Positions 9,090 to 63,042 of a DNA stretch of 64,000 bases are shown piece after piece. The position numbers and the translations under genes were made by a program. The notes beneath the pieces were generated by a model, which was given only the letters and a program-made list of their open reading frames with translations, ran no database searches and was not told where the DNA came from. How positions within the stretch are numbered: position 1 is the first letter of the stretch; each line of letters begins with the position of its first letter. The DNA is from Patescibacteria group bacterium (GTDB lineage: Bacteria; Patescibacteriota; Microgenomatia; Levybacterales; GWA1-39-11), in the NCBI GenBank assembly GCA_035545675.1, contig DASZYA010000004.1, positions 6,519 to 70,518 of the forward strand, in the 5' to 3' direction.

Positions 9090-10112
9090 GTTTTTATAGA
9101 CAACAACTAGAAGCGAGATGAAAGGAATTGCAAGTAAAGCTCCTGCCATTCCCAAAAGCTTTCCGCCAATAATAATGCTTAGAATTATAACTATTGGGTT
9201 AAGTCCCACTGCTCTTTGCATGATTCTTGGAACGAGAACATGATTCTCAATAAATTGTATAAAGAAGTAAGATACGGCAACAACAATTCCTAAGAATGGC
9301 GAGATACTTAAAGCCACAAAAACAGCTGGAATCGCAGATATTATCGGACCAATGGTTGGAACTATTTCAAAAAGCGCTGCCGTAACAGCAAGCGGTAATG
9401 CAAACTCTATTCCAATAGCAGTCAGAACTACCCAAGTTAAGATTCCTATAAAAGCAGATAGCACTATTTGTCCACGAAGCCAGTTTCCAAGCTTGTCTTC
9501 AACTTGTTCTACTGTTCTTTTTACTTTCGCTTGATTCTTTTTTGGAAATAGCCCGGCAAAGCTGTCTATAACTGTCTCACGATACAAAAGAAGGTAAAAA
9601 GAGATAGCAAAAATTGAAACAGCCGACACTACTCCACCAAAAACTCTGGTAGTTACACTAATTGCATTTGATCCAATATTTCCAAGTTCATTTGTGGCAA
9701 GGCTATTTATTTGAGAGCTGTGAATTCTTGCACCAAAAAAGTCTATGTCGTGATTTAGATACCCCGGCAAAATCGCAAGTAAGGCTGATACCTGGCTAAT
9801 AAAGAAAGGCAGGATTGAGATTATGATTAAAACTAAGACAGCGATAGTTATAAGATACGGGATTGTTGCGGCAAGTGGCCTTGGTACGTTGTGTGATCTC
9901 AAAAACTTAACCACAGGGTAAATTGCAGACATTATGATGTAGGAAACAAAAAGAGCTACAATAATCTCGCGCATTGCAATTATTGCCCAAAATGTTACTA
10001 CAACAAGAAGCGCTGCTAATACCTGATTTTTGAGGAAGAAGTTGATAAATTGTTTTCTCATAGCCTCAATTATAAACATTATAGGTCTAAATTGCAAGTA
10101 AGAATAGGCCAA
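9081..10112 (-). CDS. AI-2E family (UPF0118/PerM-like) membrane transporter
   Basis: 8-TM protein with a conserved C-terminal block (HVLVPRIMQRAVGLNPIVIILSIIIGGKLLGMAGALLAIPF). Confidence 0.6.
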   Translation of the reverse strand: MAYSYLQFRPIMFIIEAMRKQFINFFLKNQVLAALLVVVTFWAIIAMREIIVALFVSYIIMSAIYPVVKFLRSHNVPRPLAATIPYLITIAVLVLIIISILPFFISQVSALLAILPGYLNHDIDFFGARIHSSQINSLATNELGNIGSNAISVTTRVFGGVVSAVSIFAISFYLLLYRETVIDSFAGLFPKKNQAKVKRTVEQVEDKLGNWLRGQIVLSAFIGILTWVVLTAIGIEFALPLAVTAALFEIVPTIGPIISAIPAVFVALSISPFLGIVVAVSYFFIQFIENHVLVPRIMQRAVGLNPIVIILSIIIGGKLLGMAGALLAIPFISLLVVVYKNLE

Positions 10113-19895: not shown

Positions 19896-20414
19896 TTAGC
19901 CTTTAACGACTCTGTAGTGAAGCTGAATAGTATTGAGGTTTATATTCTTGCTTTCTATGAATTCTAGGTCAAATTCAAAGTCGTCTTCTGCAAATAGCTT
20001 TATTCCCTTTCCTAGAACAAGAGGTTCTACATCAAGATAGATTTCATCAATAAGCTTTTCTTTCATAAAACTTGAATTAAGACGTCCGCCTCCAGCGACA
20101 AAAGCTTCTTTGTAGCCTTTTTCTTCTAACATCTTTAGAACATCTTTGGGACTATCATTTGTAAAAACCGCTTGGTGCTCCCAAGTGTTTTCAATTTCTT
20201 TTTGGGTCATAACAACATTTAGTGCATCTGGAAAAGGGAAATAGCCGTAGTCCGAAGCAGACTTAAAAGTGTTTGCTCCCATAACGATGTTGCCTGCTAT
20301 CTTGCTGTGTTGATAGAAGCCCTGAAGATCTTCTTCTGAAGTCCATTCGGAGTCGCCATTCTCTTTTGCAATGTAACCATTGATGGAGATACCCATGTAA
20401 AGAATCACTTTCAT
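19896..20414 (-). CDS. dihydrofolate reductase-family (RibD C-terminal-like) protein
   Basis: MKVILYMGISINGYIA...VMGANTF...AFVAGGGRLNSSF. Confidence 0.6.
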   Translation of the reverse strand: MKVILYMGISINGYIAKENGDSEWTSEEDLQGFYQHSKIAGNIVMGANTFKSASDYGYFPFPDALNVVMTQKEIENTWEHQAVFTNDSPKDVLKMLEEKGYKEAFVAGGGRLNSSFMKEKLIDEIYLDVEPLVLGKGIKLFAEDDFEFDLEFIESKNINLNTIQLHYRVVKG

Positions 20415-20449: not shown

Positions 20450-21394
20450 ATGAAATATAAACATTCTGTTCTTGGGGGTACTTTTGATCACTTACATATT
20501 GGTCACAAACACTTTATAAAAGCAGCACTTGAGCACTCAGAAAGCTTAACCATTGGGTTAACAGTGGAAGAGCTTTATAAAAATAAAGCATTTGCCTACT
20601 CTATTCTTTCTTATGAGGCGAGAGAAAAAGAATTAAAAGAATTTCTAAGAGAGGAAGGATTTCTGGATAAGACAAAAATAGTTCCTATAAAAGATTTTTA
20701 TGGAATAACTTTAGATCAAGAAAATATAGATGCAATCTTTGTAACAAGGCATGGGGAAAAGGCCGCAAGGCTAATTAATAAGAAAAGACATGGAAAAGGT
20801 TTCAGAAAGCTAAGTGTAAATCTTGTAAATTTTGCTCGCGGAAATGATGGGAATGTAATTTCCTCTACCAGAATTAGGGCCGGCCTAATTGATAGAAATG
20901 GATTTTCATACAAAAAGTTTTTGAATAAGAATTTCACCCTAAAAGACTCTTTAAGAGAGACGGTTAAATTTATTCCCGAAGGCAAAATCTATGAGGATTA
21001 CAAGGTCGTTTTAAGGGAGAAAGTTATAATTTCTGTTGGAGATGTTGTTTCTTCCGATCTTGTTGAGCTTGGTAGACAAGCAGACCTATCAATAGTAGAT
21101 AAAAAAACAAAAAGAATTAAAAATACGGCCTTTAAAAAGCAGCCTGATAAGATAGTAAGAAATCCAAAAGGAACTTTAAAAAGAAGTGCTAGCGAGGCAA
21201 TTTTTGAGTGTTTAAGGGATGGCAAGAAAGTAATAAAAGTAATTGGTGAAGAAGATTTATTAGCTCTTTCTGCTACTCTTCTTGCGCCTCTTGGATCAAT
21301 TGTGGTTTATGGTATGCCAGACAAGGGACTTGTGGAAGTGGTAGTTACTGAGGAAAAGAAAAAAGAAGTCTTAGCCTTTTTTAAAAGTTGGTAG
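20450..21394 (+). CDS. fusion of a HIGH-motif cytidylyltransferase-like (archaeal PPAT-like) domain and a DUF359-like (GTP-dependent dephospho-CoA kinase-like) domain
   Basis: N-terminus GGTFDHLHIGHKHFIKAA (nucleotidyltransferase H-x-G-H). The C-terminal half ISVGDVVSSDLVELGRQADLSIVDKKTKR resembles DUF359. Confidence 0.5.
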   Translation: MKYKHSVLGGTFDHLHIGHKHFIKAALEHSESLTIGLTVEELYKNKAFAYSILSYEAREKELKEFLREEGFLDKTKIVPIKDFYGITLDQENIDAIFVTRHGEKAARLINKKRHGKGFRKLSVNLVNFARGNDGNVISSTRIRAGLIDRNGFSYKKFLNKNFTLKDSLRETVKFIPEGKIYEDYKVVLREKVIISVGDVVSSDLVELGRQADLSIVDKKTKRIKNTAFKKQPDKIVRNPKGTLKRSASEAIFECLRDGKKVIKVIGEEDLLALSATLLAPLGSIVVYGMPDKGLVEVVVTEEKKKEVLAFFKSW

Positions 21395-21952
21395 TTATTT
21401 CTTTTTGCTAGGTACAAAAAGAAGGGTTGCAATAAAAGTTCCAATTATAGTTACAAGCCAGCCGAACATAATTTTGCCTTCTAGGTTGTGAATATTTGCC
21501 TCAACTTCCTTCATGTTTCTTCCGGCCAATACAAAGCCAGCAGAATTAGATGATGAATAAGGTGTAATTACTGTTGCAATTCTAATGCCCGGCTCTGGCT
21601 GCCAAGTCAGCGTTTCTCCATTGTTTTCCTTTGCGTTGTTGAAAATACCCTTTGGTAAAACAGGATTCTTACCATTTAGTTGGCCTGTTGAAACGATAAC
21701 TTTTCCAGAAGAATCATAAAAAATCATAAACGGGGCTAGATTTGTTGCGATATCAATTTTTTCTGGACCCTGAAAAAGTGACGCGTTGGTAAAAGCATGA
21801 GATGTCATATTCGTAGCATAGTCTCTAGAAATTTGTAACTGTGGATCATTTGCGCCAAGGCGTAGGAGTTGCTGTGTTGTTCCAAGAATTATAAAAGTTA
21901 CTCCGGTTATAGCAACGGCGAGGGGAATGAAAATGCGAATCTTTTGATTCAT
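21395..21952 (-). CDS. hypothetical protein with N- and C-terminal TM helices
   Basis: Hydrophobic termini; no motif. Confidence 0.3.
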   Translation of the reverse strand: MNQKIRIFIPLAVAITGVTFIILGTTQQLLRLGANDPQLQISRDYATNMTSHAFTNASLFQGPEKIDIATNLAPFMIFYDSSGKVIVSTGQLNGKNPVLPKGIFNNAKENNGETLTWQPEPGIRIATVITPYSSSNSAGFVLAGRNMKEVEANIHNLEGKIMFGWLVTIIGTFIATLLFVPSKKK

Positions 21953-21967
21953 AAAAAGATTATATCA

Positions 21968-23179
21968 CTATCTTTTGTTTGCGTTTCCAAGAGCGGCTAC
22001 TGCTGCTCCAATTCTTCCAGCTTCTTCAATATTTACAAAATGGATGGATTTTTGCGTTAATCTTTTTGCCACTTCTTGAGCTATTTCTTTATAGCCTGGC
22101 ACCTTCCAGAACAATGACCCCTCAACAGGTATTTGTAATTGCTCTTCTGTAAACGTTTCTGGAAATGCTTTTGTAATTCCAGCGATCATAACTCCAACTA
22201 GTTGTGCAGATCTGTTTCTAAGTCTTTCTGCTGCTTCAATAAGCATTGGGTTTCCTTGGGTAGTTATTAAAAGATTTGTGATTGTTTCACTGTCTAGGTT
22301 CGAGGGTATATGGGGTATTCCTTCTCTTGAAAGTTCTTGTGCAACTATTTCCATTTGTTGGCCTAGCCAAAGCCCTGAAATCTGTTTTTCGGCTAAATAT
22401 TTTCCCGTCATACCACTTCTGCCACTTTGTCTGTCAACAATTTTTGCTAACTCGTTTAATGGAAAGCCAGAAAAACTTCCCGATTCTGTATTTATTACGC
22501 CATTTGGAGTATCTGCTGCAAGATTGAATCCTGTCCCCACTACTCCCCCAAGTTTTGCCCCATCGGAAAAAACCACTGCAACCGTATCATTCATTACAGA
22601 GGTTGGGGTGTTTGCATCTATTCCATAGTTTTGGGAAAGACTTTCTCTAAGCGCCTGGCCGACGGGTAATTTACTTATACCCGGAATTACAAATTCTTTT
22701 GTGAGTTGTTCCGGGGAAACAATATCTACTCCACCATCTGTTTTAACTGCTTGACCCGGGAATGAATAAACAATTCCAATAGCATCAATGTTTCCTTGAT
22801 CTAGCATTGGCGCAACACCGTTTGCTATGTGGGCAAAAAATTCATCAGCGCTTCTAAATTCTCTTCCTGGTAAAGCTGCTCTTTGAGAATCTTGTATTGA
22901 TGGTTTGCTATTTTCTATGGCAACGCGTGCTCCATACAAATTTGTTCCTCCAATCTCAACTATTAAAGCCTGACTACCTTCTCTTAAATCAGAAAGAGAT
23001 ACTGAGGATAATAAGGATGGATACATAGGAAGTCCTTTTTCACCATGCGTATCTAAGCCATCTTTTAGAGCAGTAATATAATCATCAACCGCTTGTCTTT
23101 CTTCCTGTTCATTAAGTGGGCGCAGATTCGTTCTTTCAAAGAATTCAACATCGTTTAGTTTTTCGCGCATATTGTGCAT
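21968..23179 (-). CDS. hexokinase-family sugar kinase
   Basis: LIVEIGGTNLYGARV (phosphate-1) and GVVGTGFNLAADTP (hexokinase GTG.N motif), 403 aa. Confidence 0.5.
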   Translation of the reverse strand: MHNMREKLNDVEFFERTNLRPLNEQEERQAVDDYITALKDGLDTHGEKGLPMYPSLLSSVSLSDLREGSQALIVEIGGTNLYGARVAIENSKPSIQDSQRAALPGREFRSADEFFAHIANGVAPMLDQGNIDAIGIVYSFPGQAVKTDGGVDIVSPEQLTKEFVIPGISKLPVGQALRESLSQNYGIDANTPTSVMNDTVAVVFSDGAKLGGVVGTGFNLAADTPNGVINTESGSFSGFPLNELAKIVDRQSGRSGMTGKYLAEKQISGLWLGQQMEIVAQELSREGIPHIPSNLDSETITNLLITTQGNPMLIEAAERLRNRSAQLVGVMIAGITKAFPETFTEEQLQIPVEGSLFWKVPGYKEIAQEVAKRLTQKSIHFVNIEEAGRIGAAVAALGNANKR

Positions 23180-26399: not shown

Positions 26400-26951
26400 T
26401 TATTTAGGTTGGTAATAGAGAAGAATATTTCCGTTTCCAAAAGTCCTTGAGTTAACTAGCTTTAAATCTGTTTTCTTAACTCCTTTAAACAACAACTTCC
26501 CTTCACCTAAAACTACCGGGCTAACCATGAGTCTGTATTCATCAATTAGGTCTAGATTTGCAAATTGTTGGACTATTTGCCCGCTTCCAAAAATAGCCAT
26601 GTCTTTACCCTCTTCTTCTTTAAGTTTTTTAATTGCAGCAGTATCTATTTCATCTATTACAACAGTATTTTGCCAGGTAGCATTTTTAATAGATTTTGAA
26701 AAAACAATTTTTGGAGTTTCGTTCATGAGCTTTGCAACGGTTGGATCATCTTTCAAGGCTCCCTCTGTTGGCCAATAGCTTTTCATTAGGTCATAAGTAG
26801 TTCGGCCAAACATAAGAGTCCCAAATTCACTGGTCTGTTTAATTGCAAATTCATTAAACTCTTCGTCAACTGTATGCCAGTCAATATTGCCGTCAGGCCC
26901 GGCAAAATATCCATCAACCGTCACCATATTAAAAACAATTATCCTTCTCAT
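26400..26951 (-). CDS. dihydrofolate reductase-family (RibD C-terminal-like) protein, second paralog
   Basis: MRRIIVFNMVTVDGYFAGPDG...LMFGRTTYD...AIFGSGQIVQQF. Confidence 0.65.
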   Translation of the reverse strand: MRRIIVFNMVTVDGYFAGPDGNIDWHTVDEEFNEFAIKQTSEFGTLMFGRTTYDLMKSYWPTEGALKDDPTVAKLMNETPKIVFSKSIKNATWQNTVVIDEIDTAAIKKLKEEEGKDMAIFGSGQIVQQFANLDLIDEYRLMVSPVVLGEGKLLFKGVKKTDLKLVNSRTFGNGNILLYYQPK

Positions 26952-27226
26952 TAGTTTTGTTTTCCAAATCTTTTCAATGCGCGTAAATGTGCTTTTTCTG
27001 CTTCTTTTTCTCTGTTGTGGGGATGGGAATGTGCAGTGAGCGAACCTAATAAATGTTCTGTTGTGTGAGCTATATCTTCAACTGCAGCATTGAATGCCTC
27101 TTCATTATCAGTAGAAGGCTTGTTAAATCCTGAGACTTTTCTGACGTATTGAAGAGCTGCTGCATGAACTTCTTCATGTGTTGCTGTGGGTTCAAAATTG
27201 AAAAGATGTTTTATGTTGTGACACAT
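26951..27226 (-). CDS. hypothetical His-rich small protein
   Basis: ORF with ATGA overlap to the upstream gene. Confidence 0.3.
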   Translation of the reverse strand: MCHNIKHLFNFEPTATHEEVHAAALQYVRKVSGFNKPSTDNEEAFNAAVEDIAHTTEHLLGSLTAHSHPHNREKEAEKAHLRALKRFGKQN

Positions 27227-27310
27227 ATAAATAGCTTATAGCTGATAGGTTTTAGCTCGTAGGGAGATTTTAAGCCTTTGATAAATATGTTTCAAGGGTA
27301 TTTTTGTTAA

Positions 27311-27706
27311 TTAATTTTTGAGTTCTTCCTCTTCTTCAGCGTTCCAGGGGGTAATTAGCTGAAAGTAATTTCCATCAGGGTCAGCAAAGGTGGCAATCCA
27401 GAAATTTCCATCCTCTCCCATTGCGTAAGGTTCTTTTACTACCTCTACTCCTTCTATTTCTTTGATTCTTTCAAATTCACCCTTAACGTCTTTTGTTTCA
27501 AAATTAAAGAGTACGCGGTCAGGGTCTTTTGCTTTTCCATGAATCTTGTCATGAAATCCAATGCTTAAGAAGCAGCTCCCTACTAAAAATCCTTTGTAGT
27601 TCTCGTCTTCCATATCTGGCTTCTTTTCAAAAACCTTTTCGTAGAAATCAGCAAGTTTTTTAACGTCCTCTGTTGATAATAATATTGAATTAAAATTTAA
27701 TTTCAT
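27311..27706 (-). CDS. VOC (glyoxalase/bleomycin-resistance/dioxygenase) family protein
   Basis: Size and a beta-alpha-beta(3) module pattern (LLSTEDVKKLADFYEKVF). Confidence 0.55.
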   Translation of the reverse strand: MKLNFNSILLSTEDVKKLADFYEKVFEKKPDMEDENYKGFLVGSCFLSIGFHDKIHGKAKDPDRVLFNFETKDVKGEFERIKEIEGVEVVKEPYAMGEDGNFWIATFADPDGNYFQLITPWNAEEEEELKN

Positions 27707-27773
27707 TTCATTTATATCCCCCGGTTAGATAGCTTCTCTGAAGCATCGAACGGGGCCACGTTGAATGTGTAAG

Positions 27774-28295
27774 CTATTCAACTGTGGCTGCTTTTTTAAT
27801 AGCTTCTAAGTCTAATTTTTTCATTGGCATAAATACTTTTGTTACTGCCTCTGCTCTTGTTGGATCTTTCATGAGCTCATCTAGGATTCTTGGTGTTATT
27901 TGCCATGTGATACCAAAGCGATCTGTACACCATCCACATTGTTCTGCTTCTGGAACTGCTGACAGTTTCTCCCAGAAGTGATCAATTTCTTCTTGAGTTT
28001 CGCATTCAACTATAAAAGATACTGATCCATTAAGTTTAAATTGTTCTAGTGGCCCACCATTTAGTGCCATGAATTTTGATCCATCAAGGGTGTATTCGAG
28101 AGTCATAACTGTTCCCTCTTTGATTTTGGAAATTTCTTCTCCTTCTTTTGTGGCTTTTGTAATGTCTCCGAGTTCTCCGTGGTGAACCCCGCCTGGAGCA
28201 GAATTAAAAGTATCTACGTAGTATTTTGCGGCTTCCTCTCCGTCGCTATTTACAAACCAAATACAAGTAGTCATTCTTCTTACATTATAGCGCAA
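27774..28295 (-). CDS. VOC-family PhnB-like protein
   Basis: C-terminal CGWCTDRFGITWQI hallmark of the PhnB-like/3-demethylubiquinone methyltransferase-like family. Confidence 0.6.
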   Translation of the reverse strand: MRYNVRRMTTCIWFVNSDGEEAAKYYVDTFNSAPGGVHHGELGDITKATKEGEEISKIKEGTVMTLEYTLDGSKFMALNGGPLEQFKLNGSVSFIVECETQEEIDHFWEKLSAVPEAEQCGWCTDRFGITWQITPRILDELMKDPTRAEAVTKVFMPMKKLDLEAIKKAATVE

Positions 28296-28385
28296 GTTTT
28301 GTTAGAAAGAAGTATGAATTTATCAGAGCTTAGGTGTGATTTAGATCATTTATGTCTTTTCAAGCAATTATTAGAATGAAAGCAT

Positions 28386-28796
28386 ATGATACCGGAGAAA
28401 ATACAAAGAATAATTCTTCTAATAGTTCTTGCCTATGAAGGCTTAGGTGGGCTTTTGGGAGGAATACTTTTGGTTTTAGGGCCAGATGGACATTATATGG
28501 ATATGAATATTGAAATTATGCATGGAGCCTTTCCTGACTTTTTAATCCCAGGAGTAATTCTCACTTGTATGGGAGCGCTTACAACAACAGCATTCTTCGC
28601 AGTTCTTAGAAGAAGCAGATATGATTGGCTTCTTGCCGGGTTTTCAATGGGTGGATATATTATTTGGTTTGCAACAGAAATCACGATACTAAGAGAACTT
28701 CATTGGCTTCATATTATGTGGGGAGTCCCGGTTTTAATAGGTGCCTCAATGGTTATTCCAATGCTCCCTTGGTTTAGGAGAAATCTAAGCTCTTAA
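28386..28796 (+). CDS. hypothetical 4-TM membrane protein
   Basis: Hydrophobicity. Confidence 0.35.
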   Translation: MIPEKIQRIILLIVLAYEGLGGLLGGILLVLGPDGHYMDMNIEIMHGAFPDFLIPGVILTCMGALTTTAFFAVLRRSRYDWLLAGFSMGGYIIWFATEITILRELHWLHIMWGVPVLIGASMVIPMLPWFRRNLSS

Positions 28797-29455
28797 ACCC
28801 TTGCGGCGAGAAGGTCTTCCACTAGTCTTTGAGATTTTAAGGCAATTGCGAATTCTGCGCCTTGCCCAGTTTTCTTAAGTGCTTCTTCTATATCTTCTTT
28901 GATACCACTTTTGCTTAAAGTTTCTACAATGTAAATATTTCCGTGATCACGAGTCCCATTTATTTGAATGTTCATTTTTTCTCCTTCTTTTCCATCAATC
29001 GTAATTAGAGGTTTTACTGCCATGTCTGCCCACTCGAAAATCTTAATCATTGTATCTATTGGCCACTCAGAGTTTATACCTGGAAACATAATCACTTGGA
29101 TTTTGGAATTAGGTTCCTCTTCTGGTTGAGTATTATATATTTGAGCAAAGCCGGTTATTCCCATTTGGGCAAAATATCCCTCGTATATATCCCTAACCTT
29201 TGCTGCATTGGGGTCAAAATAGCTTACAAAAAGATTGGGATTTTTTGATTGTTTGTAGAGCTCCTCCACTGTTCCTCTCAATTCATCAGGTTCATCTTGT
29301 AAGCCTGGAAAATAATGGCCATGCGCAAGTCTGTGACGCTTAGCCACATAAGGAAGATATATCCCTTGATTTTGTAGTAGGCCTAAGTTATCCGCGAATT
29401 CCTCTACGGACCATGCGGAAAGCTGCTCCGGTACGTATGTAAGCGTTTCTGCCAT
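28793..29455 (-). CDS. hypothetical protein
   Basis: ORF only. Confidence 0.3.
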   Translation of the reverse strand: MAETLTYVPEQLSAWSVEEFADNLGLLQNQGIYLPYVAKRHRLAHGHYFPGLQDEPDELRGTVEELYKQSKNPNLFVSYFDPNAAKVRDIYEGYFAQMGITGFAQIYNTQPEEEPNSKIQVIMFPGINSEWPIDTMIKIFEWADMAVKPLITIDGKEGEKMNIQINGTRDHGNIYIVETLSKSGIKEDIEEALKKTGQGAEFAIALKSQRLVEDLLAARV

Positions 29456-29505
29456 AAGGAGGTATTATAGCATTTTACTAATCCTATAGGAAATTTAGAA
29501 TGAAT

Positions 29506-30231
29506 TTATTGAAGTTTGGAAAACCAGTCTGTGTATTCTTTATCAACCATATCTCTAAACTTTTCTTCTTGAATACTGTGTGGGGCGCCTTTCAGAAGGT
29601 GGTAGGTTAATTTTGAACTGTCCTTTACCGCATTCTTATAGTTTTGAAGAGTTTGGCGTGGGACGGAATTGTCGAATTCTGATTCGAGAATTAAAATATT
29701 GCCATCAAAGTTATGTATGGCTTCAAGTGCCATCGTATCAGTGGGTTCTCTTTTTTCCGCTCGCCATTCTAAAACGCCTGGATTCTCAGAGCCAGCAAGT
29801 CTTGCAAGTCCTGTAAAGGTTTCTCTTGGATAGTTTGCAGGAACTCTTAAAACTAAATTTTTAACTTTCCTTTTTGATGTAAGAAGCGCAACTAAATATC
29901 CTCCAAGACTTGATCCCACAACACTTATGTTGTCCGGATCAACTCCATCTATTTTTGCAAGATGATCATAAGCCTTTAGGGCATCGCTTAGAAGCTCTTC
30001 ATGGGTTACTGTGTTGATATCGCCTTCGCTATCTCCATGCCCTCTTAGGTCAACCAAAAAACAAATATATCCAAGTTTAGTAAGTGACTCTGCATATTGG
30101 ATGTTTCTTATTCTTTTGCCTGTCCAGCCAGGAATAAAAAGAATTGCGGGGTTTTTGCTCGTTTTGTTTTTAGGAAGAAAGAGAGTTGTTGCTAATTTAA
30201 GACCATCATTTTCTATAAATGAGTTTTCCAT
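29506..30231 (-). CDS. alpha/beta hydrolase
   Basis: GxSxG nucleophile elbow VVGSSLGGYL; HGDSEG. Confidence 0.65.
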   Translation of the reverse strand: MENSFIENDGLKLATTLFLPKNKTSKNPAILFIPGWTGKRIRNIQYAESLTKLGYICFLVDLRGHGDSEGDINTVTHEELLSDALKAYDHLAKIDGVDPDNISVVGSSLGGYLVALLTSKRKVKNLVLRVPANYPRETFTGLARLAGSENPGVLEWRAEKREPTDTMALEAIHNFDGNILILESEFDNSVPRQTLQNYKNAVKDSSKLTYHLLKGAPHSIQEEKFRDMVDKEYTDWFSKLQ

Positions 30232-30246
30232 GAAGCTATTATAGCA

Positions 30247-30753
30247 TTACTGTTCCATTGCTTTGAGGATGCGGTGGATAGTTTTCCAGGTTCTACTGGT
30301 TACCTCTTTTTTGTGATCTCTGTCCATTTTGGCCATAAAGTTGGTTGATTTATCTGTGTTCATGTTAAGAACCGTTGCTATTTCTTTCCTTCTGTCTTTA
30401 AAAAAAGTTACGAGTAAATAATTTGGCGCCTTATCTTCTACTCCTTTGAATGGGTCACTTTTTACAAGCTTTTTTAGATCTTCTTCTGATCTGACAATTG
30501 TCATTCGAGAGAAATCCAATTTTTTAGGAAGATTTTCTTCAATCTTATCTTCTAGTGCTTTTTCATCCGTTTCTTTTGATTCAAAAACTACATTTCCACT
30601 AGCAATAACTGGCTTTACCTTTGTAAATCCTAGGCCTTCAAAGAATTCTGTAAATTTGGGACCACTCATATTGGGGTTTCCTGGTCCAACTCCACGAATT
30701 AGCGCAACATACATCATACATTTAGCCGAGTACGCGTGATAGAAGGAGTACAA
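30247..30753 (-). CDS. DUF1697-family protein
   Basis: YVALIRGVGPGNPNMSGPKFTEFFEGLGFTKVKPVIASGNVVFE matches the DUF1697 N-terminal pattern. Confidence 0.5.
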   Translation of the reverse strand: MYSFYHAYSAKCMMYVALIRGVGPGNPNMSGPKFTEFFEGLGFTKVKPVIASGNVVFESKETDEKALEDKIEENLPKKLDFSRMTIVRSEEDLKKLVKSDPFKGVEDKAPNYLLVTFFKDRRKEIATVLNMNTDKSTNFMAKMDRDHKKEVTSRTWKTIHRILKAMEQ

Positions 30754-31024
30754 GAAGGATGATTGTTAGGATTCCAAAAGTAGCAAGAGATTTAAAAGCA
30801 AGTTCAATTGCGGCTTTTTTCTTCCCGTTAAAATACATTTGGAAGGGATTAAAAAAGAAAATGTAAGCCATGATAGCTGCTGAGAAGGTGAATAAGGAAA
30901 GAACTATTATTGGCATAAATACAGAAGGTTTGTTGTCGATGTGGGGAGCATAAAACATTGTGGATGCAATGATTGATATATAGGCAAGCGCTGCTATTCC
31001 GTTAAGTATTGGGTTTTTGCTCAT
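30722..31024 (-). CDS. small 3-TM membrane protein
   Basis: Hydrophobicity. Confidence 0.3.
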   Translation of the reverse strand: MSKNPILNGIAALAYISIIASTMFYAPHIDNKPSVFMPIIVLSLFTFSAAIMAYIFFFNPFQMYFNGKKKAAIELAFKSLATFGILTIILLVLLLSRVLG

Positions 31025-31026
31025 AG

Positions 31027-31440
31027 CTATTTAAGATACGGTCTTGTTGGCTGCAGAACGCCTACCGCATTTCCTTCTGTATCAAGAATTGAAATGTATT
31101 TCCCAATTCCAGGGATGTCCATTACATCATTTTTTATAGTTCCACCAGCGGCTAATATATCTTTTTTAGCTTGCTCTATGTCATCAACGTTTATTACTAC
31201 ATGTACGGTTTTGTCTTCTGGTTTTGGTACGTGGGTTTCATCGTAAAACCCTCCGTTAATTGTTCCTGGGGTTTTTACCATTCCATTTTCATCAGTGTCA
31301 GAAGTTAGTGCGATTACATAATTACCCATTTCTTCATTTGTTGGTTCCATTCCCCAACCAAAAGCGCTTTTGTAGAATTCTGAAACGCGTTTTGCGTCTT
31401 TGTATGGCATTTCAAAGTGTACAACGGGGTTTTTACTCAT
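31027..31440 (-). CDS. VOC/glyoxalase-family protein
   Basis: VVHFEMPYKDAKRVSEFYKSAFGW... Confidence 0.6.
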   Translation of the reverse strand: MSKNPVVHFEMPYKDAKRVSEFYKSAFGWGMEPTNEEMGNYVIALTSDTDENGMVKTPGTINGGFYDETHVPKPEDKTVHVVINVDDIEQAKKDILAAGGTIKNDVMDIPGIGKYISILDTEGNAVGVLQPTRPYLK

Positions 31441-31463
31441 AAATTTATTATAGCACAGGGTGT

Positions 31464-32258
31464 CTATCGTCCAAGAGCCGTATCCATTTCTCTCCAGCTA
31501 ATCTCTCTGTCTCGAGATGCTTCTAAAAGTAGCTTTACGCTCCTAGAGCTATTGGGGTTAACCTTATCTCTTTTATCTGTTGCGTCAACATTGTGAAGAA
31601 ATCCAAGCCCAAATCTAATGATTCGTCTTGCCTCTTCTTCATCTGGAACATATTCGCCCCAGGCTTCATTTTTTGGATCAATAGCCTCTTTAGGGGGATA
31701 AATCATTGCTTTTAAGACTTCTTCTACTAGAACTTGGGGTGCAGGACAGGAATTAGATTTGGGATTTTTGTTATCCGCAATAAAATGGTTCTTTTTTGCA
31801 GTGTTGTTACCATCAGCAAAATTGTAGGTTTGTCTTTGGGTTTTGGGCTTATCGCTTAACTTGGGATCTCTTACCATTTCGTATGCCACGGCTTTTATTC
31901 CATCTGCCGCCCTTGATGCATCAATAAAATAAGGGGGTAATATGTCAACCGGATTATTTGCTCGCATTCGAAGATACATGGGCATTGCATGGATTGCGTA
32001 GGCAAACTCTTCTAATTGTTTAGGTGTTAGGGGCGTTTCTGAGTAAGTCGATCTGATGTATTTTATTAAGCTTATTGCCTCGTCGTTGGACTGTTGAAAT
32101 TCTGAAAATGCTACTGTGTCTGTAGGGTGTCCTATTCTTCCTGGTAATCTGTTCGGGACAAAGCTTCGATTTTCCTGTAGTTTTGCAATAATATTTCTAC
32201 CGCTTGTATCAAAACCCTCTCTTATTGCATCGCCAATGTGCCTTTCTGTGTATGACAT
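31464..32258 (-). CDS. hypothetical protein
   Basis: ORF only. Confidence 0.3.
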   Translation of the reverse strand: MSYTERHIGDAIREGFDTSGRNIIAKLQENRSFVPNRLPGRIGHPTDTVAFSEFQQSNDEAISLIKYIRSTYSETPLTPKQLEEFAYAIHAMPMYLRMRANNPVDILPPYFIDASRAADGIKAVAYEMVRDPKLSDKPKTQRQTYNFADGNNTAKKNHFIADNKNPKSNSCPAPQVLVEEVLKAMIYPPKEAIDPKNEAWGEYVPDEEEARRIIRFGLGFLHNVDATDKRDKVNPNSSRSVKLLLEASRDREISWREMDTALGR

Positions 32259-32306
32259 AGGGGGATATTCTATAAGAAATCTAGGATTCTTTCAAACTTA
32301 AAGAGG

Positions 32307-32696
32307 TTATTTCTTCTCAGAAATTAACGAGAGTATGTTTCCGGCTGGATCTTTGAACCAGGCTATTGAGCCTCCATCTGGGTTCTTCATAATGCCTTTT
32401 TCATCTGTTTTCATTCCTTCTCCCATGTCATAGTGCTCGAAAGTTACACCTTTTGCTACTAGTTTATCTACTGCTTTTTCTACATCATCTACTAAAAAGT
32501 TAAGAACTGTAAAAGTTGCTGGTTTGTGGTCAGGCTTTGGATAAATCATTCCCATTGCGCCTTGTCCTAGGTGAAGCTCTAATACTCCCATTTCATTGTC
32601 TTTTGTTTCTATTCCAAGGGTTGTGCCATAAAATTCTTTTGCACGTTTTAAGTCATCTGTAGAAAAACTTGAAAAGGTTTTTGTATCTTTAAACAT
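32307..32696 (-). CDS. VOC/glyoxalase-family protein
   Basis: FSTDDLKRAKEFYGTTLG... pattern. Confidence 0.6.
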   Translation of the reverse strand: MFKDTKTFSSFSTDDLKRAKEFYGTTLGIETKDNEMGVLELHLGQGAMGMIYPKPDHKPATFTVLNFLVDDVEKAVDKLVAKGVTFEHYDMGEGMKTDEKGIMKNPDGGSIAWFKDPAGNILSLISEKK

Positions 32697-33106
32697 TATT
32701 CTTTTGCTGAAACATTTACCATCCAGTGGATTCCAAATTTATCTGTTAACATTCCAAAAGTATCTCCCCATGGAGCTTTTGCTAAGGGATAGTCTGCTTT
32801 TCCACCTTCTGCGAGTTTATTAAACCATTCGGTTAACTGTTCCAGGTCTGAGCCAATAAGACTCATGCTAATATTGTCCCCTACATGTACTGGGTGTTCT
32901 GAATTTCCGTCAGCAGCCATAAAAGTGAAGTTTTCTGTTTTTAGCTCTGAGTGCATTGTTAAGTCTTTATCCTCTGGTGCACAGTTTGGATTGCCTTCTG
33001 CGTAAGTTTGGGTTGTTAGTTCTCCACCAAAAATAGATTTGTAGAATTCCATAGCTTCGCGTGTCTTTCCGGTGAAATTTAGATAAGGAAGAAGAGTTGA
33101 TTTCAT
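32696..33106 (-). CDS. VOC-family PhnB-like protein
   Basis: LNFTGKTREAMEFYKSIFGG...GDTFGMLTDKFGIHWMVN. Confidence 0.6.
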   Translation of the reverse strand: MKSTLLPYLNFTGKTREAMEFYKSIFGGELTTQTYAEGNPNCAPEDKDLTMHSELKTENFTFMAADGNSEHPVHVGDNISMSLIGSDLEQLTEWFNKLAEGGKADYPLAKAPWGDTFGMLTDKFGIHWMVNVSAKE

Positions 33107-33206
33107 TAGGAAAATTAGTATAACAAGCAGTTCTTACAAAAACAAGCAAATTCTTCTCGCAGCAAAAATCAGACTCCTTACGACATCTGACTTTTGCTAG
33201 AATGGT

Positions 33207-33620
33207 CTACTTTATGCCATTCTCAGTACTTGTAACATTAAAGTTACTATCAAGTTTAACCGTGACCTGTGAGCCGTCTGACTTTGTCATATGAGCTTCG
33301 TATTTTGCTCCTTCAGCGTCGGTCTCTACACGTTCTATAGTTGCGCCTGGTACTGCTTTTTGTGCTGCCTTTTTGACCTCATCTGCAGTGTCTCCTGTTA
33401 ATAATTCTTCTTTTGTCCCGTTGGCTCCTATGTGGCCGCCTTTACTAGGATCAAAAGTAGAATCTTGTGGAGGTTTTGTACTTTGGGTGGTTTGAGTTGT
33501 GCTATCTGCTGCATTTGCTGAGCCAATTATATTTGCACCAGCAAACATTCCGATAGTAAGCATTAATACACCCATCCCAATTGCCGCTACTTTATTCCTC
33601 ATCCTATCACCTCCTTTCAT
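33207..33620 (-). CDS. secreted PepSY-like domain protein
   Basis: Signal/anchor, then ...EVKKAAQKAVPGATIERVETDAEG..YEAHMTKSDGSQVTVKLDSNFNV. Confidence 0.4.
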   Translation of the reverse strand: MKGGDRMRNKVAAIGMGVLMLTIGMFAGANIIGSANAADSTTQTTQSTKPPQDSTFDPSKGGHIGANGTKEELLTGDTADEVKKAAQKAVPGATIERVETDAEGAKYEAHMTKSDGSQVTVKLDSNFNVTSTENGIK

Positions 33621-33665
33621 TTTTTCAATTATTGCAGGTGGATCTTAAAAACGCCTTAAGAGGAG

Positions 33666-34517
33666 CTATTCGTTTTCATTAATGAATTCGCGAATGAAGT
33701 TTATGCACTCTTCTCTTTCTGTCCAGAAAGGAAAGTGGGCGCTGTTTTCAAATATTCTCATTCTTGAATCTGGAATAAGAGTTGTAAAGTATTCTGTTGC
33801 TTCTGGGGTTGTTTCGTCTATTCTTCCACAAAAAAGAAGCGTTGGAACATTAATATCTTTTAGTTTATTTGAGAGGCTGATATTTGCCGATGGACCATTT
33901 GGTTCAAAGAAGTTTGGGCCAAACATTATCTTTTCAACTTCTGGATTCATCTTGTGTTCTGATTTTAGAACCGCTGTGGGAAGATCCTTTACTCCATATA
34001 GATATTTTTCAAGGAATTCACCCATCGCATTTTTATATTCCTCTGATTCTTCTGGTTGCTTAAGTCCTTTTTGAACACTTTCCGGGAAAGTGTTAATGAT
34101 CTCCTTAATTTGTTTTGTCCAAAGAGGTATATCAAGGAATGGATTTGCCAAGATTAACAATTTAAGTCCCGGAGGGTTTTTAATAGCAAAGTTTGCTGCA
34201 ATTGTTGTTCCCCAGGATTGGCCAAGAATAATATATTCTTTGAACCCAAGGTGTTTTATGAGTGTTTCCAGCTCTCCTGTGTAGTAGTCAAGAGTAAACG
34301 CAGACTTATCAGTAGTCCATTCAGAGTTCCCACAGCCTAGTTGATCATAAAAAACAACCTGACGATCGTTTGCTAAATCTCTAAATGGCTCAAGATAATC
34401 ATGAGGATAAGCTGGCCCGCCGTGAATCACAATAATTGGAGTTTTGTTGCCTTCTCCAACTATTTCATACCAGACTTTTCCCTTGCCTGCATCAATAAAT
34501 CCTTCTGTTGTTGTCAT
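33666..34517 (-). CDS. proline iminopeptidase-like alpha/beta hydrolase (S33 family)
   Basis: IVIHGGPAYPHDY; GQSWGTT nucleophile elbow. Confidence 0.65.
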   Translation of the reverse strand: MTTTEGFIDAGKGKVWYEIVGEGNKTPIIVIHGGPAYPHDYLEPFRDLANDRQVVFYDQLGCGNSEWTTDKSAFTLDYYTGELETLIKHLGFKEYIILGQSWGTTIAANFAIKNPPGLKLLILANPFLDIPLWTKQIKEIINTFPESVQKGLKQPEESEEYKNAMGEFLEKYLYGVKDLPTAVLKSEHKMNPEVEKIMFGPNFFEPNGPSANISLSNKLKDINVPTLLFCGRIDETTPEATEYFTTLIPDSRMRIFENSAHFPFWTEREECINFIREFINENE

Positions 34518-34540
34518 AAAGCGATTATATCAATTTATCT

Positions 34541-34900
34541 CTATCTTTTATTTTCTTCATTCCATTTTGCCTGAGCTTTTATTAGCCTTTGGATTAAATC
34601 AAAAGGAATAGGCTTATTGAGTGGAAAGCGAATTGTTCCTTTGCTCATTTCATAATCTTTTAACTCATCTTTGAATTGTTTTCTAACGGGTTCAAAAATT
34701 GCATAGATTCCAATGTGTGTTTTTGTTTGGGCAAAATAAACTAGTCTACCGTGGTATGAATAAAAAGGCATGCTGTAGCTAATTCTCTCCTCGGCTTCAG
34801 GAACTGTGGTTTTTATAATCTCACGGATTTTAGTAAGACTTTCTTGAACGTTTTTTGGAGAAGCGGCAATATACTCGTCTACTGTTTTATAAGATTGCAT
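34541..34900 (-). CDS. DUF1801 (YdhG-like) protein
   Basis: VDEYIAASPKNVQESLTKIREIIKTTVPEAEERISYSMPFY. Confidence 0.5.
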   Translation of the reverse strand: MQSYKTVDEYIAASPKNVQESLTKIREIIKTTVPEAEERISYSMPFYSYHGRLVYFAQTKTHIGIYAIFEPVRKQFKDELKDYEMSKGTIRFPLNKPIPFDLIQRLIKAQAKWNEENKR

Positions 34901-34903
34901 ATA

Positions 34904-35302
34904 TTATTCAAACCACATCGGCGTTTTATCATATGGATTTGCATGATTATAATTAACAGTTATCTCCTCGTCTTTTTTAATATTTTCTATGGCAGTAAAT
35001 TCAATTACGCCTTCTTTCTCTTTTATTTCATATGTGGCGTTTGGTTTTCTGGTGTGGTTGTATATTGATCCAAAACCTAAAGCAACAGCGGCTTGTTCTT
35101 TTTTCTTGCCAAAGTAGTAAAGATAGGTAATGAGAATGTTGTCATTTATTTCACTTGTGTCGTGCTCAGAAAGCTCAATTATTGGACATATCTCAATTAA
35201 TTCGCCTTTCTTAATATCATCTCTTGCAAATACTCCTCTTTCTGATTTTGCTATATCAGATGGGGCCACATATATTTTATTTGGAGACAAGATCTTATTC
35301 AT
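34904..35302 (-). CDS. SET-domain-like protein (putative protein lysine methyltransferase)
   Basis: IYNHTRKPNATYE (NHSxxPN-like motif) and EEITVNYN (ELTxxY-like). Confidence 0.4.
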   Translation of the reverse strand: MNKILSPNKIYVAPSDIAKSERGVFARDDIKKGELIEICPIIELSEHDTSEINDNILITYLYYFGKKKEQAAVALGFGSIYNHTRKPNATYEIKEKEGVIEFTAIENIKKDEEITVNYNHANPYDKTPMWFE

Positions 35303-35332
35303 GAAGTGATTATAGTAGTTGGAGATTTGACA

Positions 35333-36031
35333 TTACTCTGCCGGATATCCCGGGAACCAATCACCCTTGATGTGTTCTTTTGGAATTCCCATCTTCTCAA
35401 GCATTTCATTTAGTGAATCTACCATTGGTTCGGGACCTGAAACATAGAAAATTGGTCCGCCAGCTGGCGGATTGAAGTCAGGAACTAATTCTTTTACCTT
35501 ATTCTCATCAATATGTTCTGGAGAAAATACATAATTAATTTTTAGATTCGGATTTCTTGTGGATAGCTCCTCTAGTTCATCTCTGAAAACTACATTTTGA
35601 TCGCGATTTGCATATATTAAATTTACATTAATTGGTTTTTTGTCATGATCAAGCTGTCTTAATATTGATCTGAATGGCGTTATTCCAATTCCTCCTGCAA
35701 TGAATACATATTCTAAGTCTGGATTATCCAGGGTAAAGTCGCCTTCCACGTAAGAAATTTCAATCTCATCTCCCTCTTTTAGACTTGCAAGCTTTTTCTT
35801 AAATGAACTTCCTTTGTCTTGTGTAATTCTTGTTGTAATCTGTACGTGGTTTTCATATGGAGCAGCTGCATTTGTAAACCAACGATCAGATCCTCTATTA
35901 TCTGTTGGTTCGTGATGTAATACGTAGTGAAGATATTGTCCTGGAACCCATTCAAGTTTTTCTTGTGGCTCAAAAATAAAAGTGAGGACTCCAGCGGTAG
36001 CTTCTTTTTTCTCTTTGAGCTTGAGGATCAT
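35333..36031 (-). CDS. ferredoxin-NADP reductase-like FAD/NAD(P)-binding oxidoreductase
   Basis: RWFT..AAP (RxYS-like FAD motif) and FIAGGIGITPFRSIL (NAD-binding GxGxxP). Confidence 0.55.
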   Translation of the reverse strand: MILKLKEKKEATAGVLTFIFEPQEKLEWVPGQYLHYVLHHEPTDNRGSDRWFTNAAAPYENHVQITTRITQDKGSSFKKKLASLKEGDEIEISYVEGDFTLDNPDLEYVFIAGGIGITPFRSILRQLDHDKKPINVNLIYANRDQNVVFRDELEELSTRNPNLKINYVFSPEHIDENKVKELVPDFNPPAGGPIFYVSGPEPMVDSLNEMLEKMGIPKEHIKGDWFPGYPAE

Positions 36032-36080
36032 GATTTATTATAGCACCATAGATCAATCCCTTTGGTATACTCTGCTTATT

Positions 36081-36290
36081 ATGAATCTTAAAAACGATAG
36101 TTATGTGATTCACATGGGGACAAAGAATTTCACAGAGAAGTATTATAAAGATGAAAAGGGTTGGTTGAAGATTTCTGCAAAGGGAAAAGAGTTCAGAATG
36201 ACAGCAGAACAGGTGCTTAATCATTTATTGCCTGCTGTTGCCGGGGTAAAGCCAGGATTAATACTCAAAGTAGAACACAAAGAAGAATAG
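36081..36290 (+). CDS. small hypothetical protein (start assigned to internal Met; ORF open from 35982)
   Basis: ORF only. Confidence 0.25.
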   Translation: MNLKNDSYVIHMGTKNFTEKYYKDEKGWLKISAKGKEFRMTAEQVLNHLLPAVAGVKPGLILKVEHKEE

Positions 36291-36292
36291 AA

Positions 36293-36631
36293 TTACTTAG
36301 TTTTCTTTCTTGACCTGGAGGGGATTAAATTACCAATAATGCTTAAGACTGCTCCGAAAACTGCACTTACAACTCCCATCAAAACAAAAAATGGAATTTT
36401 GGTTGCTACAGGATCAGCGCCGTTATAGTTTGCTACCATAAAAACAAAACCCAAGAAAAATCCATATGCCAACCCATTTTTAATTGACTCTTTTCTGTTG
36501 TTGCTAAGATATCCAATTATTAAAGCAGCCAATCCCCAGGGAATTACGGTTAAAACTTGCAGTGTAAGTACTTTTGTCGCCAAGAAGCCTAAGATTATTC
36601 CTAGGATTCCCGTGATAAGTATTCTCTTCAT
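36293..36631 (-). CDS. hypothetical membrane protein
   Basis: 3-4 TM helices. Confidence 0.3.
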   Translation of the reverse strand: MKRILITGILGIILGFLATKVLTLQVLTVIPWGLAALIIGYLSNNRKESIKNGLAYGFFLGFVFMVANYNGADPVATKIPFFVLMGVVSAVFGAVLSIIGNLIPSRSRKKTK

Positions 36632-36996
36632 TACTCTATTGTACGACTTTTTCTAAAGCCAACCAATATTGGTAAAAGAAAAGTTAGGGCGTAATAAAGG
36701 TAAACATCTGGCTTGTAATAAACGCTAGTTGTTGTGAATGCTCTAACAAGGAAGAAATAGTCACAAATAACTGCAATCAAGGTCCATACGATTGCTATTC
36801 CTAGATAATGTTTTATATCTCTGCTCTTTATTTGTTTTATTAGTACCCACAAAGAAACAATAATTCCAATTGGCATTACGAACCAGCCAATAAGATCATG
36901 TGGCACTATGGTAAAGAAAACTATTCCAAGTCCATATCCAATTAGCCATACCATAAACCCCCAAAAAAATGCATCTTTTAAAAATTGTTTGTTCAT
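36631..36996 (-). CDS. hypothetical membrane protein
   Basis: 4 TM helices; ATGA overlap with the downstream gene. Confidence 0.3.
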   Translation of the reverse strand: MNKQFLKDAFFWGFMVWLIGYGLGIVFFTIVPHDLIGWFVMPIGIIVSLWVLIKQIKSRDIKHYLGIAIVWTLIAVICDYFFLVRAFTTTSVYYKPDVYLYYALTFLLPILVGFRKSRTIE

Positions 36997-37185
36997 AGTA
37001 AATTCCTCTTTTTAATTTCTTCTAAGATTTTCCCGCCAAGAGGACGGCAGCTACAGTTTTTTGCATGTGCCAGATGCCACTCTATTCTTTGGTCAAGCGT
37101 TGGATTTTTTGGCATTTTGTTTTTTGTGTGCCACTCAGCATTTATTTTCATACCAAGAGTTTATCCTACAAGAAAGCAAAATGAT

Positions 37186-37201
37186 GTGATCTTAATCACT
37201 C
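37186..37201. promoter_or_regulatory. CRP/FNR-type palindrome TGTGA-N6-TCACT
   Basis: A direct read: tgtgatcttaatcact. Confidence 0.45.
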
Positions 37202-37630
37202 AAAGGGGTTGTTGTTTTTCATGAATTGATAGGATTTCTCTACTAACTTGGTAAGTGTATCTAGGTCTACATCTGATAGCTTATTTATATAAAGGCAGCC
37301 TCCCATTCCGCCACTGGTTTTGTGCTTGCCCAGTTTTTTCAATAGTGCCTCGCTCTCATTGTTGCCGTGCATAATATATAGAGTTAAATTGGCTTTTCTT
37401 GGGGAGAATCCAACGAGCATCCAGTCTCCTTCTTGGGAACTTTTTTTGGATTTGTAATGATATTTACCAAAACCAACAATACTTCCACCCCACATCACTG
37501 CTTTTTCGCCAGTAATGTTTTCAAACATTTCTAGCAATTTAAGGGCGTCTTTTCTTTTTTCTTCAGGTTCAATAGTATTTAAAAAATCTTTGGGGTCTTG
37601 GGTTGTGACTTTTGTTTTTAACTCTGCCAT
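37196..37630 (-). CDS. DUF1801 (YdhG/YdeI-like) protein, second paralog
   Basis: DPKDFLNTIEPEEKRKDALKLLEMFENITGEKAVMWGGSIVGFGKYHY. Confidence 0.5.
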   Translation of the reverse strand: MAELKTKVTTQDPKDFLNTIEPEEKRKDALKLLEMFENITGEKAVMWGGSIVGFGKYHYKSKKSSQEGDWMLVGFSPRKANLTLYIMHGNNESEALLKKLGKHKTSGGMGGCLYINKLSDVDLDTLTKLVEKSYQFMKNNNPFE

Positions 37631-62721: not shown

Positions 62722-63042
62722 ATGTTTCCTAAGAAATCTCGTTATTCTTTTAAAGAAGGATTGCCGAGAAAAGTCATTTCTTTCCCATCTTTTTCATTAA
62801 GATTCGAAAAAAATGATATTGGCGCAAGAATAGCGGTAGTTGTGAGTAAGAAAGTAGATAAAAGCGCAGTTGCGAGGAACAGCATTAAGAGAAAATTCCT
62901 CGATCTATTAAAAGAAAACGGCGCTCAAGATCTATCTTACAGCCTTGTTTTCTATTTAAGGAGAAATGCTCTTGAAAATGATATGCTTTCAGGAGAAATA
63001 AAAGAAGCATTAAACAAACTTAACAATGTTCCAAATCTTTAA
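62722..63042 (+). CDS. rnpA: ribonuclease P protein component
   Basis: Position after rpmH; basic RNR-like motif SIKRKFLDLLKE; 106 aa. Confidence 0.75.
   Translation: MFPKKSRYSFKEGLPRKVISFPSFSLRFEKNDIGARIAVVVSKKVDKSAVARNSIKRKFLDLLKENGAQDLSYSLVFYLRRNALENDMLSGEIKEALNKLNNVPNL

Follow-up and report, generated by a model that had tools for sequence, protein, structure and literature searches.

A PPAT–DUF359 fusion gene of a Patescibacteria bacterium that probably encodes a bifunctional archaeal-type CoA synthase

How does a bacterium with a reduced genome complete coenzyme A (CoA), and does it do so with enzymes of archaeal type? This question is raised by a gene located in a 64,000-nt stretch of DNA from a Patescibacteria group bacterium (DASZYA010000004.1, positions 6,519-70,518; assembly GCA_035545675.1), which is referred to, in its whole length, as the window. 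A sequence-only reading had proposed that this gene joins an archaeal-type phosphopantetheine adenylyltransferase (PPAT)-like half to a half resembling DUF359 and the GTP-dependent dephospho-CoA kinases (DPCK), and that both are carried on one polypeptide inside a bacterium. Each part of this proposal is borne out by the analysis described here, and the fusion gene probably encodes a bifunctional ‘CoA synthase’ composed of archaeal-type enzymes, which most likely makes CoA from 4'-phosphopantetheine. The open reading frame (ORF) is uninterrupted on the + strand, from an ATG at 20450 to a stop codon at 21392-21394, and encodes a single protein of 314 amino acids that starts with MKYKHSVLGGTFDHLHIGH and comprises two Pfam domains. 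A 100% identical protein is present in the databases (NCBI HVT00719.1, from a 79 kb contig of a metagenome-assembled genome (MAG) titled ‘Patescibacteria group bacterium’), where it is named only as a PPAT (pantetheine-phosphate adenylyltransferase).

The N-terminal half, which contains two conserved motifs of nucleotidyltransferases (Table 1), is recognized over residues 7-144 by the Pfam model CTP_transf_like (E 4.8e-14; 53 bits, cut-off 21). Moreover, residues 2-153 reach 138.1 bits with the NCBIfam model of the archaeal-type PPAT subfamily (NF001985; PRK00777, COG1019) and pass its curated cut-off of 104, whereas the equivalog of bacterial CoaD, TIGR01510, fails with 13.7 bits against 103.3. 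The domain is not of the bacterial CoaD type. The Protein Data Bank (PDB) entry 3do8, the PPAT of Archaeoglobus fulgidus, matches residues 7-151 by sequence (E 7.8e-18). Both motifs are highly conserved in a MAFFT alignment of 120 homologues: G10, F12, G18, and H19 of the first one are invariant and H16 is 99% conserved, while in the second one I142 and R143 do not vary, and conservation amounts to 99% at S139 and 92% at R141. In a 44-sequence alignment, S139, I142, and R143 are all invariant.

The C-terminal half is recognized by Pfam DUF359 (PF04019), whose profile positions 1-123 of 126 are covered by residues 200-312 (E 1.1e-27; 96.5 bits, gathering score 25). Both Pfam matches of the protein thus score far above chance. 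Residues 156-307 match PDB 8jvc, the GTP-dependent DPCK of Thermococcus kodakarensis (TK1697), with an E value of 5.1e-18. Three Asp residues of this half, D198, D217, and D269, align with the catalytic Asp48, Asp67, and Asp125 of TK1697 in the HMMER alignment to 8jvc and in that of the homologues (Table 1). Each of them is invariant among the 120 homologues, in which G266, E267, E268, and L270 are invariant together with D269. In TK1697 itself, mutagenesis has shown these three residues to be important for function, and the D48A substitution abolishes function in T. kodakarensis (PMC6650551). No CoaE-type (P-loop) domain is found among the Pfam and NCBIfam matches of the fusion protein.

The two halves follow each other closely. 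The match to 3do8 ends at residue 151 and that to 8jvc starts at residue 156, so that there is virtually no linker between the domains. The AlphaFold2 model of the protein, for which a 44-sequence alignment was used as input, has a mean predicted local distance difference test score (pLDDT) of 94.4 and a predicted template-modeling score (pTM) of 0.90, which indicates that the protein folds as a defined two-domain body. When this model was compared with the PDB by Foldseek, the top matches were 8jvg and 8jvc (E 1.2e-12; template-modeling (TM) score on the target 0.76-0.80, with 0.80 for 8jvg_B and 0.77 for 8jvc), followed by 3do8 (E 6.6e-9; TM(target) 0.78-0.84, with 0.78 and a root-mean-square deviation of 2.0 Å for 3do8_A) and, at lower ranks, by many bacterial PPATs and archaeal nicotinamide mononucleotide adenylyltransferases (NMNATs). 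Fused pseudo-enzyme domains occur in other pathways and, on that general ground, only one half might be catalytically active, while the other would be degenerate or would have a regulatory or scaffolding role, e.g., as a sensor of CoA or dephospho-CoA. This is very unlikely, however, since, among 120 homologues with identities of 35-63%, each key residue of either half is invariant or reaches 99% conservation, as expected from purifying selection on two active sites, and both domains are modeled with high confidence in native-like folds. Thus, the conservation of catalytic residues in both halves at such low identity argues that both active sites are under selection.

A further concern is whether the fusion is real. 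A sequencing or assembly error could have joined two adjacent genes, or a bacterial MAG could contain a mis-binned contig of an archaeon; the window comes from a metagenome assembly, CPR (candidate phyla radiation) bacteria and DPANN archaea co-occur, and several public MAG labels within the fusion family are wrong. Against this, 81 loci were scanned, and one intact ORF matching the query is present in 79 related loci, i.e., at the level of other species, as well as in L001, a second contig from an independent Logan assembly that carries the identical gene; L029 gave none. Since the intact single ORF recurs in this way, the fusion is neither an assembly nor a frameshift artifact. The host is likewise well defined. 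Pfam identifies in the window a bacterial DnaA with all three domains, a full sigma-70 factor (regions 1.1 to 4), a class A penicillin-binding protein (PBP1), and the RNase P protein RnpA, and RuvC, RuvA, RuvB, ClpB, DnaG, and YidC are recognized by reading the ORFs. The host is thus a bacterium of the Patescibacteria/CPR, in line with the assignment of HVT00719.1. Moreover, the GC content of the fusion gene (0.342) is compatible with that of the window genes (mean 0.382, sd 0.032), and its neighborhood is syntenic with that of an orthologue of 63% identity (L082, on a contig of 164 kb). This host-like composition and synteny point to a gene that is resident and old in the lineage rather than recently imported, and together with the recurrence of the ORF and the bacterial genes around it they leave an artifactual origin of the fusion with a negligible probability.

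From its domain content, a two-step reaction can be proposed for the fusion protein. Firstly, the N-terminal PPAT would transfer AMP from ATP onto 4'-phosphopantetheine, generating dephospho-CoA. Secondly, the DUF359-type DPCK would add a phosphate to the 3'-OH of dephospho-CoA and so form CoA, presumably at the expense of GTP, by analogy with TK1697. In this manner, a single gene would stand in for bacterial CoaD and CoaE. CPR bacteria do use CoA: a closed Microgenomates genome is reported to encode pyruvate:ferredoxin oxidoreductase and acetyl-CoA synthetase (PMC7143001), and L084, a locus carrying a relative of the fusion gene, contains a gene for acetyl-CoA synthetase. The physiological role of the enzyme in a reduced-genome organism would be to complete CoA from 4'-phosphopantetheine or dephospho-CoA scavenged from the host or the environment, and we infer such a salvage-type role as the most likely one. 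A host-derived supply is plausible because E. coli excretes 4'-phosphopantetheine (PMC12570885). When E. coli proteins served as phmmer queries against the window and related loci of about 1.4 Mb, translated in all six frames, no match to CoaA, CoaBC, or CoaE was obtained, and CoaD gave only weak superfamily matches in the same material. Pfam scans of 30 further window ORFs revealed no CoA gene, and PanK was likewise not found in the window or the related loci. As these sequences are not whole genomes, the absence of upstream CoA genes from them is weak negative evidence and not a whole-genome answer.

Several points weigh against a bifunctional CoA synthase acting in salvage. E. coli is unable to re-import the 4'-phosphopantetheine it excretes (PMC12570885), and no importer for this compound was identified in the 64 kb of the genome that are visible. 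No biochemical characterization of the fused form, whether archaeal or bacterial, was found in the searchable literature. No CoA-related neighbor or conserved operon is present in the window or at the examined loci of relatives; the gene is surrounded in the window by a RibD_C/DHFR-like gene, a membrane protein gene, a hexokinase gene, and a NUDIX gene, and in three relatives by unrelated housekeeping genes. Finally, the equivalog models of the Thermococcales are missed by both halves: the N-terminal one scores 106.2 bits with the CoaD equivalog NF041124 against a cut-off of 290, and in the C-terminal one the DUF359/PRK01160 models and the DPCK equivalog of the Thermococcales reach 79-83 bits over residues 162-307, compared with lineage-specific cut-offs of 300 bits (79.4 against 300 for NF041125). 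Such failures are expected for lineage-specific models, and missing NF041124 would mean that the domain is not a Thermococcales orthologue rather than that it is not a PPAT; yet the exact functional equivalence is not certified by these scores.

The missed cut-offs and the lack of CoA genes near the fusion gene would also fit enzymes with the same folds and other substrates. The N-terminal domain could adenylylate flavin mononucleotide, nicotinamide mononucleotide (NMN), or the phosphate of a sugar or polyol; the DUF359 domain could phosphorylate a compound other than dephospho-CoA, so that the protein would belong to another cofactor pathway or to a cell-envelope pathway. Annotation in the nucleotidyltransferase superfamily is promiscuous, and weak matches to models of NMNAT, FAD synthetase, and glycerol-3-phosphate cytidylyltransferase do occur. 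Nevertheless, the archaeal PPAT model is the best one by a wide margin and scores above its curated cut-off, whereas the best non-PPAT NCBIfam family of this half reaches at most 20.7 bits. In addition, the sole characterized DUF359 member is a DPCK whose three catalytic Asp residues are invariant here, and the PPAT and DPCK steps are consecutive, so that their fusion makes sense for the pathway. A distinct NMNAT domain is, moreover, present beside the other two in triple fusions. Other substrates are therefore unlikely, and CoA completion is retained as the most likely function of the fusion protein.

These triple fusions represent a variant of the family. Eight of the 120 closest homologues (P0062, P0067, P0092, P0094, P0098 (HEX7542988.1), P0099, P0103, and P0110) are about 500 amino acids long and carry an extra N-terminal domain, and the same three-domain form of about 500 amino acids is encoded at loci L021, L025, L033, L037, and L039. 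The extra domain contains the motif GRFQPFHKGH and scores 118.5 bits with NF002243, the archaeal-type NMN adenylyltransferase model, just below the cut-off of 127. At L084, the NMNAT-like domain is encoded by a separate gene for 158 amino acids (9528-10004), which shares 4 nt with the fusion gene; NAD synthase is encoded two genes upstream, and a major facilitator superfamily (MFS) transporter directly downstream. Because a distinct NMNAT domain stands in front of the PPAT domain in these relatives, the latter is not itself the NMNAT. This organization suggests that the completion of NAD and CoA can be linked in one module, which fits a role in ‘cofactor finishing’ in reduced genomes.

The fusion is widespread. 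A word-indexed protein search returned 558 relatives, and nearly all of the best 120 contain both Pfam domains in 314-357 amino acids. An exhaustive search of representatives clustered at 50% identity gave 4070 matches with E<=1e-3, of which 631 reached E<=1e-30, a score that we infer to require both domains. Among species-representative genomes, confirmed relatives are encoded at no fewer than 511 loci, and tblastn matched all of the best 80 over nearly the whole query. The bacterial hosts are mostly CPR of the Microgenomates type, including Levy-, Gottesman-, Roizman-, Beckwith- (with the closed genome CP011210.1), Chisholm-, Woese-, and Pacebacteria, to which some Parcubacteria, Paceibacterota, and Kaiserbacteria and one member of Saccharibacteria are added. 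The archaeal hosts are Norongarragalinales and Aenigmatarchaeota among DPANN, as well as Thermoplasmata and Poseidoniales (marine group II). The Norongarragalinales locus L015 is confirmed as archaeal by RadA directly downstream and by Rad50/Mre11, a wyosine radical-SAM enzyme (Taw1-like), and a YGR210-type GTPase nearby. The fusion family thus clearly crosses the boundary between the two domains of life. In NCBI, the bacterial relatives are named ‘pantetheine-phosphate adenylyltransferase’ or ‘hypothetical protein’, while some carry the JGI names ‘UPF0218 family/phosphopantetheine adenylyltransferase’ or ‘GTP-dependent dephospho-CoA kinase’.

The labels of the host genomes are to be read with care. 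Many TPA_asm MAGs in which the fusion occurs bear the title ‘uncultured Gammaproteobacteria bacterium’ or ‘uncultured Pseudomonadales bacterium’ (L003, L005-L008, L010, L013, L017, L020-L022, L036, L038, L040, L041, L050, L053, L058, L062, L063, L066, L067, L073, and L076); L059, with a GC content of 0.435, is titled ‘Vitreimonas sp.’. A wider bacterial spread, as the gammaproteobacterial labels would imply, was rejected for L007, which is wrongly labeled, as its adjacent Lon protease is 75-77% identical to that of Candidatus Levybacteria, and the other sequences labeled Gammaproteobacteria or Pseudomonadales group with CPR in a neighbor-joining tree of 80 fusion proteins (100 bootstraps). The backbone of this tree is star-like. 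Supported archaeal groups are Thermoplasmatota (100%), an Aenigmatarchaeota-like group (100%), and Norongarragalinales (99%), the last of which is placed among CPR sequences, and a clan of all archaea appears in only 8 of 100 bootstraps. With such a backbone and such low support for archaeal monophyly, the tree allows no claim on the direction or number of transfers between the domains of life. An archaeal origin of the fused domains would be the simpler reading, because both domain types are standard in archaea and not in bacteria.

The architecture was already known from archaea. A fusion of PPAT with arCOG04076 in uncultured archaea was the published lead that identified the archaeal DPCK in 2019 (Shimosaka, Makarova, Koonin, Atomi; PMC6650551). 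[quoted passage not shown] Archaeal fusions, such as AIF21550.1 of group II/III Euryarchaeota (PMC6650551), share with the window protein the two domains, their order, and a similar size (about 320-340 amino acids), and those of Poseidoniales/Thermoplasmatota and DPANN are its full-length homologues with 26-37% identity; they differ in their archaeal hosts, as opposed to a CPR bacterium here. TK1697 (PDB 8jvc, 8jvf, and 8jvg) is about 30% identical across the full length of the domain, shares its fold (TM 0.76-0.80), and has the same catalytic Asp residues, but is a stand-alone protein of 177 residues, whereas its counterpart in the window is fused. Archaeal and eukaryotic PPATs (COG1019; 3do8; TK2128) share the HxGH and ISSTxIR motifs and the 3do8 fold (TM 0.78-0.84) with the N-terminal domain, which in the window is fused to a DPCK and resides in a bacterium, where CoaD is the norm. 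Eukaryotic COASY follows the same logic, with the last two steps of CoA synthesis on one polypeptide, the PPAT first, and a PPAT of archaeal/eukaryotic type (PMC6650551). However, its kinase is of the P-loop CoaE type, which is unrelated to the DUF359 type of the window protein. In the searchable library, no paper was found that ties CPR or Patescibacteria to DUF359, dephospho-CoA, or PPAT.

Table 1. Location of the fusion gene, its domains and motifs, and other features of the window (window coordinates)
Feature	Position	Strand	Basis or remarks
PPAT–DUF359 fusion gene, complete	20450..21394	+	314 aa; ORF list, both Pfam domains, 100% identical database protein
N-terminal domain, residues 2-153, putative archaeal/eukaryotic-type PPAT	20453..20908	+	NF001985, 3do8
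GGTFDHLHIGH, residues 9-19, (H/T)xGH nucleotide-binding motif of the nucleotidyltransferase superfamily	20474..20506	+	Sequence
ISSTRIR, residues 137-143, second conserved nucleotidyltransferase motif	20858..20878	+	Sequence; aligns with ISSTRIK of 3do8
C-terminal domain, residues 156-314, DUF359/arCOG04076, GTP-dependent DPCK family	20915..21391	+	Pfam PF04019, 8jvc, Foldseek
Asp198 codon (VGDVV), equivalent to TK1697 catalytic Asp48	21041..21043	+	Alignment to 8jvc
Asp217 codon (VDKKTKR), equivalent to TK1697 catalytic Asp67	21098..21100	+	Alignment to 8jvc
Asp269 codon (GEEDL), equivalent to TK1697 Asp125	21254..21256	+	Alignment to 8jvc
RibD_C/DHFR-like gene	19896-20414	-	Divergent from the fusion gene, 35 bp between
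Membrane protein gene of unknown function	21395-21952	-	Convergent with the fusion gene, stop codon against stop codon
Hexokinase gene, eukaryote-type	21968-23179	-	Pfam Hexokinase_1 and Hexokinase_2; two genes downstream of the fusion gene, then NUDIX hydrolase
TraG-like P-loop ATPase ORF	119-1297	+	
Peptidase_M23 ORF	1281-2954	+	557 aa, raised GC of 0.476; follows the TraG-like ORF
dnaN and dnaA	4005-6576	-	
Series of short genes, mostly unannotated	26400-37630	-	
PEP synthase/pyruvate phosphate dikinase-like ORF	42184-44547	+	787 aa; PPDK_N, PEP-utilizers, PEP-utilizers_C; GC 0.563 against a mean of 0.382 (sd 0.032)
rnpA and yidC	62722-63868	+	

In its immediate surroundings, the fusion gene looks monocistronic, as it is flanked by a divergent gene at a distance of 35 bp on one side and by a convergent gene on the other (Table 1). 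A consensus scan for promoters and terminators at the gene gave no signal above chance, and no clear Shine-Dalgarno sequence is seen in the 35-bp divergent spacer. The hexokinase encoded downstream is of a eukaryotic type that is unusual among bacteria, and its arrangement with the NUDIX gene is kept in the 63%-identical relative L082.

Other features of the window lie farther from the fusion gene. The PEP synthase/pyruvate phosphate dikinase-like ORF has the most deviant composition in the window and may have been acquired horizontally in recent times; its high-GC block is not rRNA, since Rfam gives only one tRNA-Asn across the window. At the window edge, the TraG-like and Peptidase_M23 ORFs may belong to a machinery for type IV secretion or DNA transfer. 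The genes dnaN, dnaA, rnpA, and yidC are adjacent at the replication origin in many bacteria, and in the window the two pairs are 56 kb apart; the cumulative GC skew climbs almost steadily along the window and does not turn clearly at dnaA. The long series of short minus-strand genes resembles a cluster of small genes with detoxification or accessory functions, and the Pfam matches for this block in the syntenic relative L082 include RibD_C, DUF2277, glyoxalase-like, and 3-demethylubiquinone-9 3-methyltransferase-like.

Since the fusion architecture was already known, the window protein is one bacterial member among hundreds and its novelty is modest. Its significance lies in the distribution and the metabolism of the family. 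The routine presence of a DUF359-type DPCK in a major bacterial radiation changes the published archaeal distribution of this enzyme and adds to the archaeal-type enzymes in CPR. Moreover, because NCBI names the fusion proteins only as PPAT, automated metabolic reconstructions of CPR will score the last step of CoA synthesis as missing. Should the upstream pathway be absent, the enzyme would indicate a dependency on 4'-phosphopantetheine, a metabolite that could aid the cultivation of episymbionts. Tentatively, and with a chance somewhat short of even, a large part of CPR, especially of the Microgenomates type, may lack CoaD and CoaE and finish CoA only by this archaeal-type fusion, shared with DPANN and Thermoplasmatota through ancient transfer and fed by 4'-phosphopantetheine or dephospho-CoA from the host, with some lineages using an NMNAT–PPAT–DPCK form to finish both NAD and CoA. 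If this were true, the archaeal DPCK would be a two-domain enzyme family, and 4'-phosphopantetheine would be a metabolite traded in episymbiosis.

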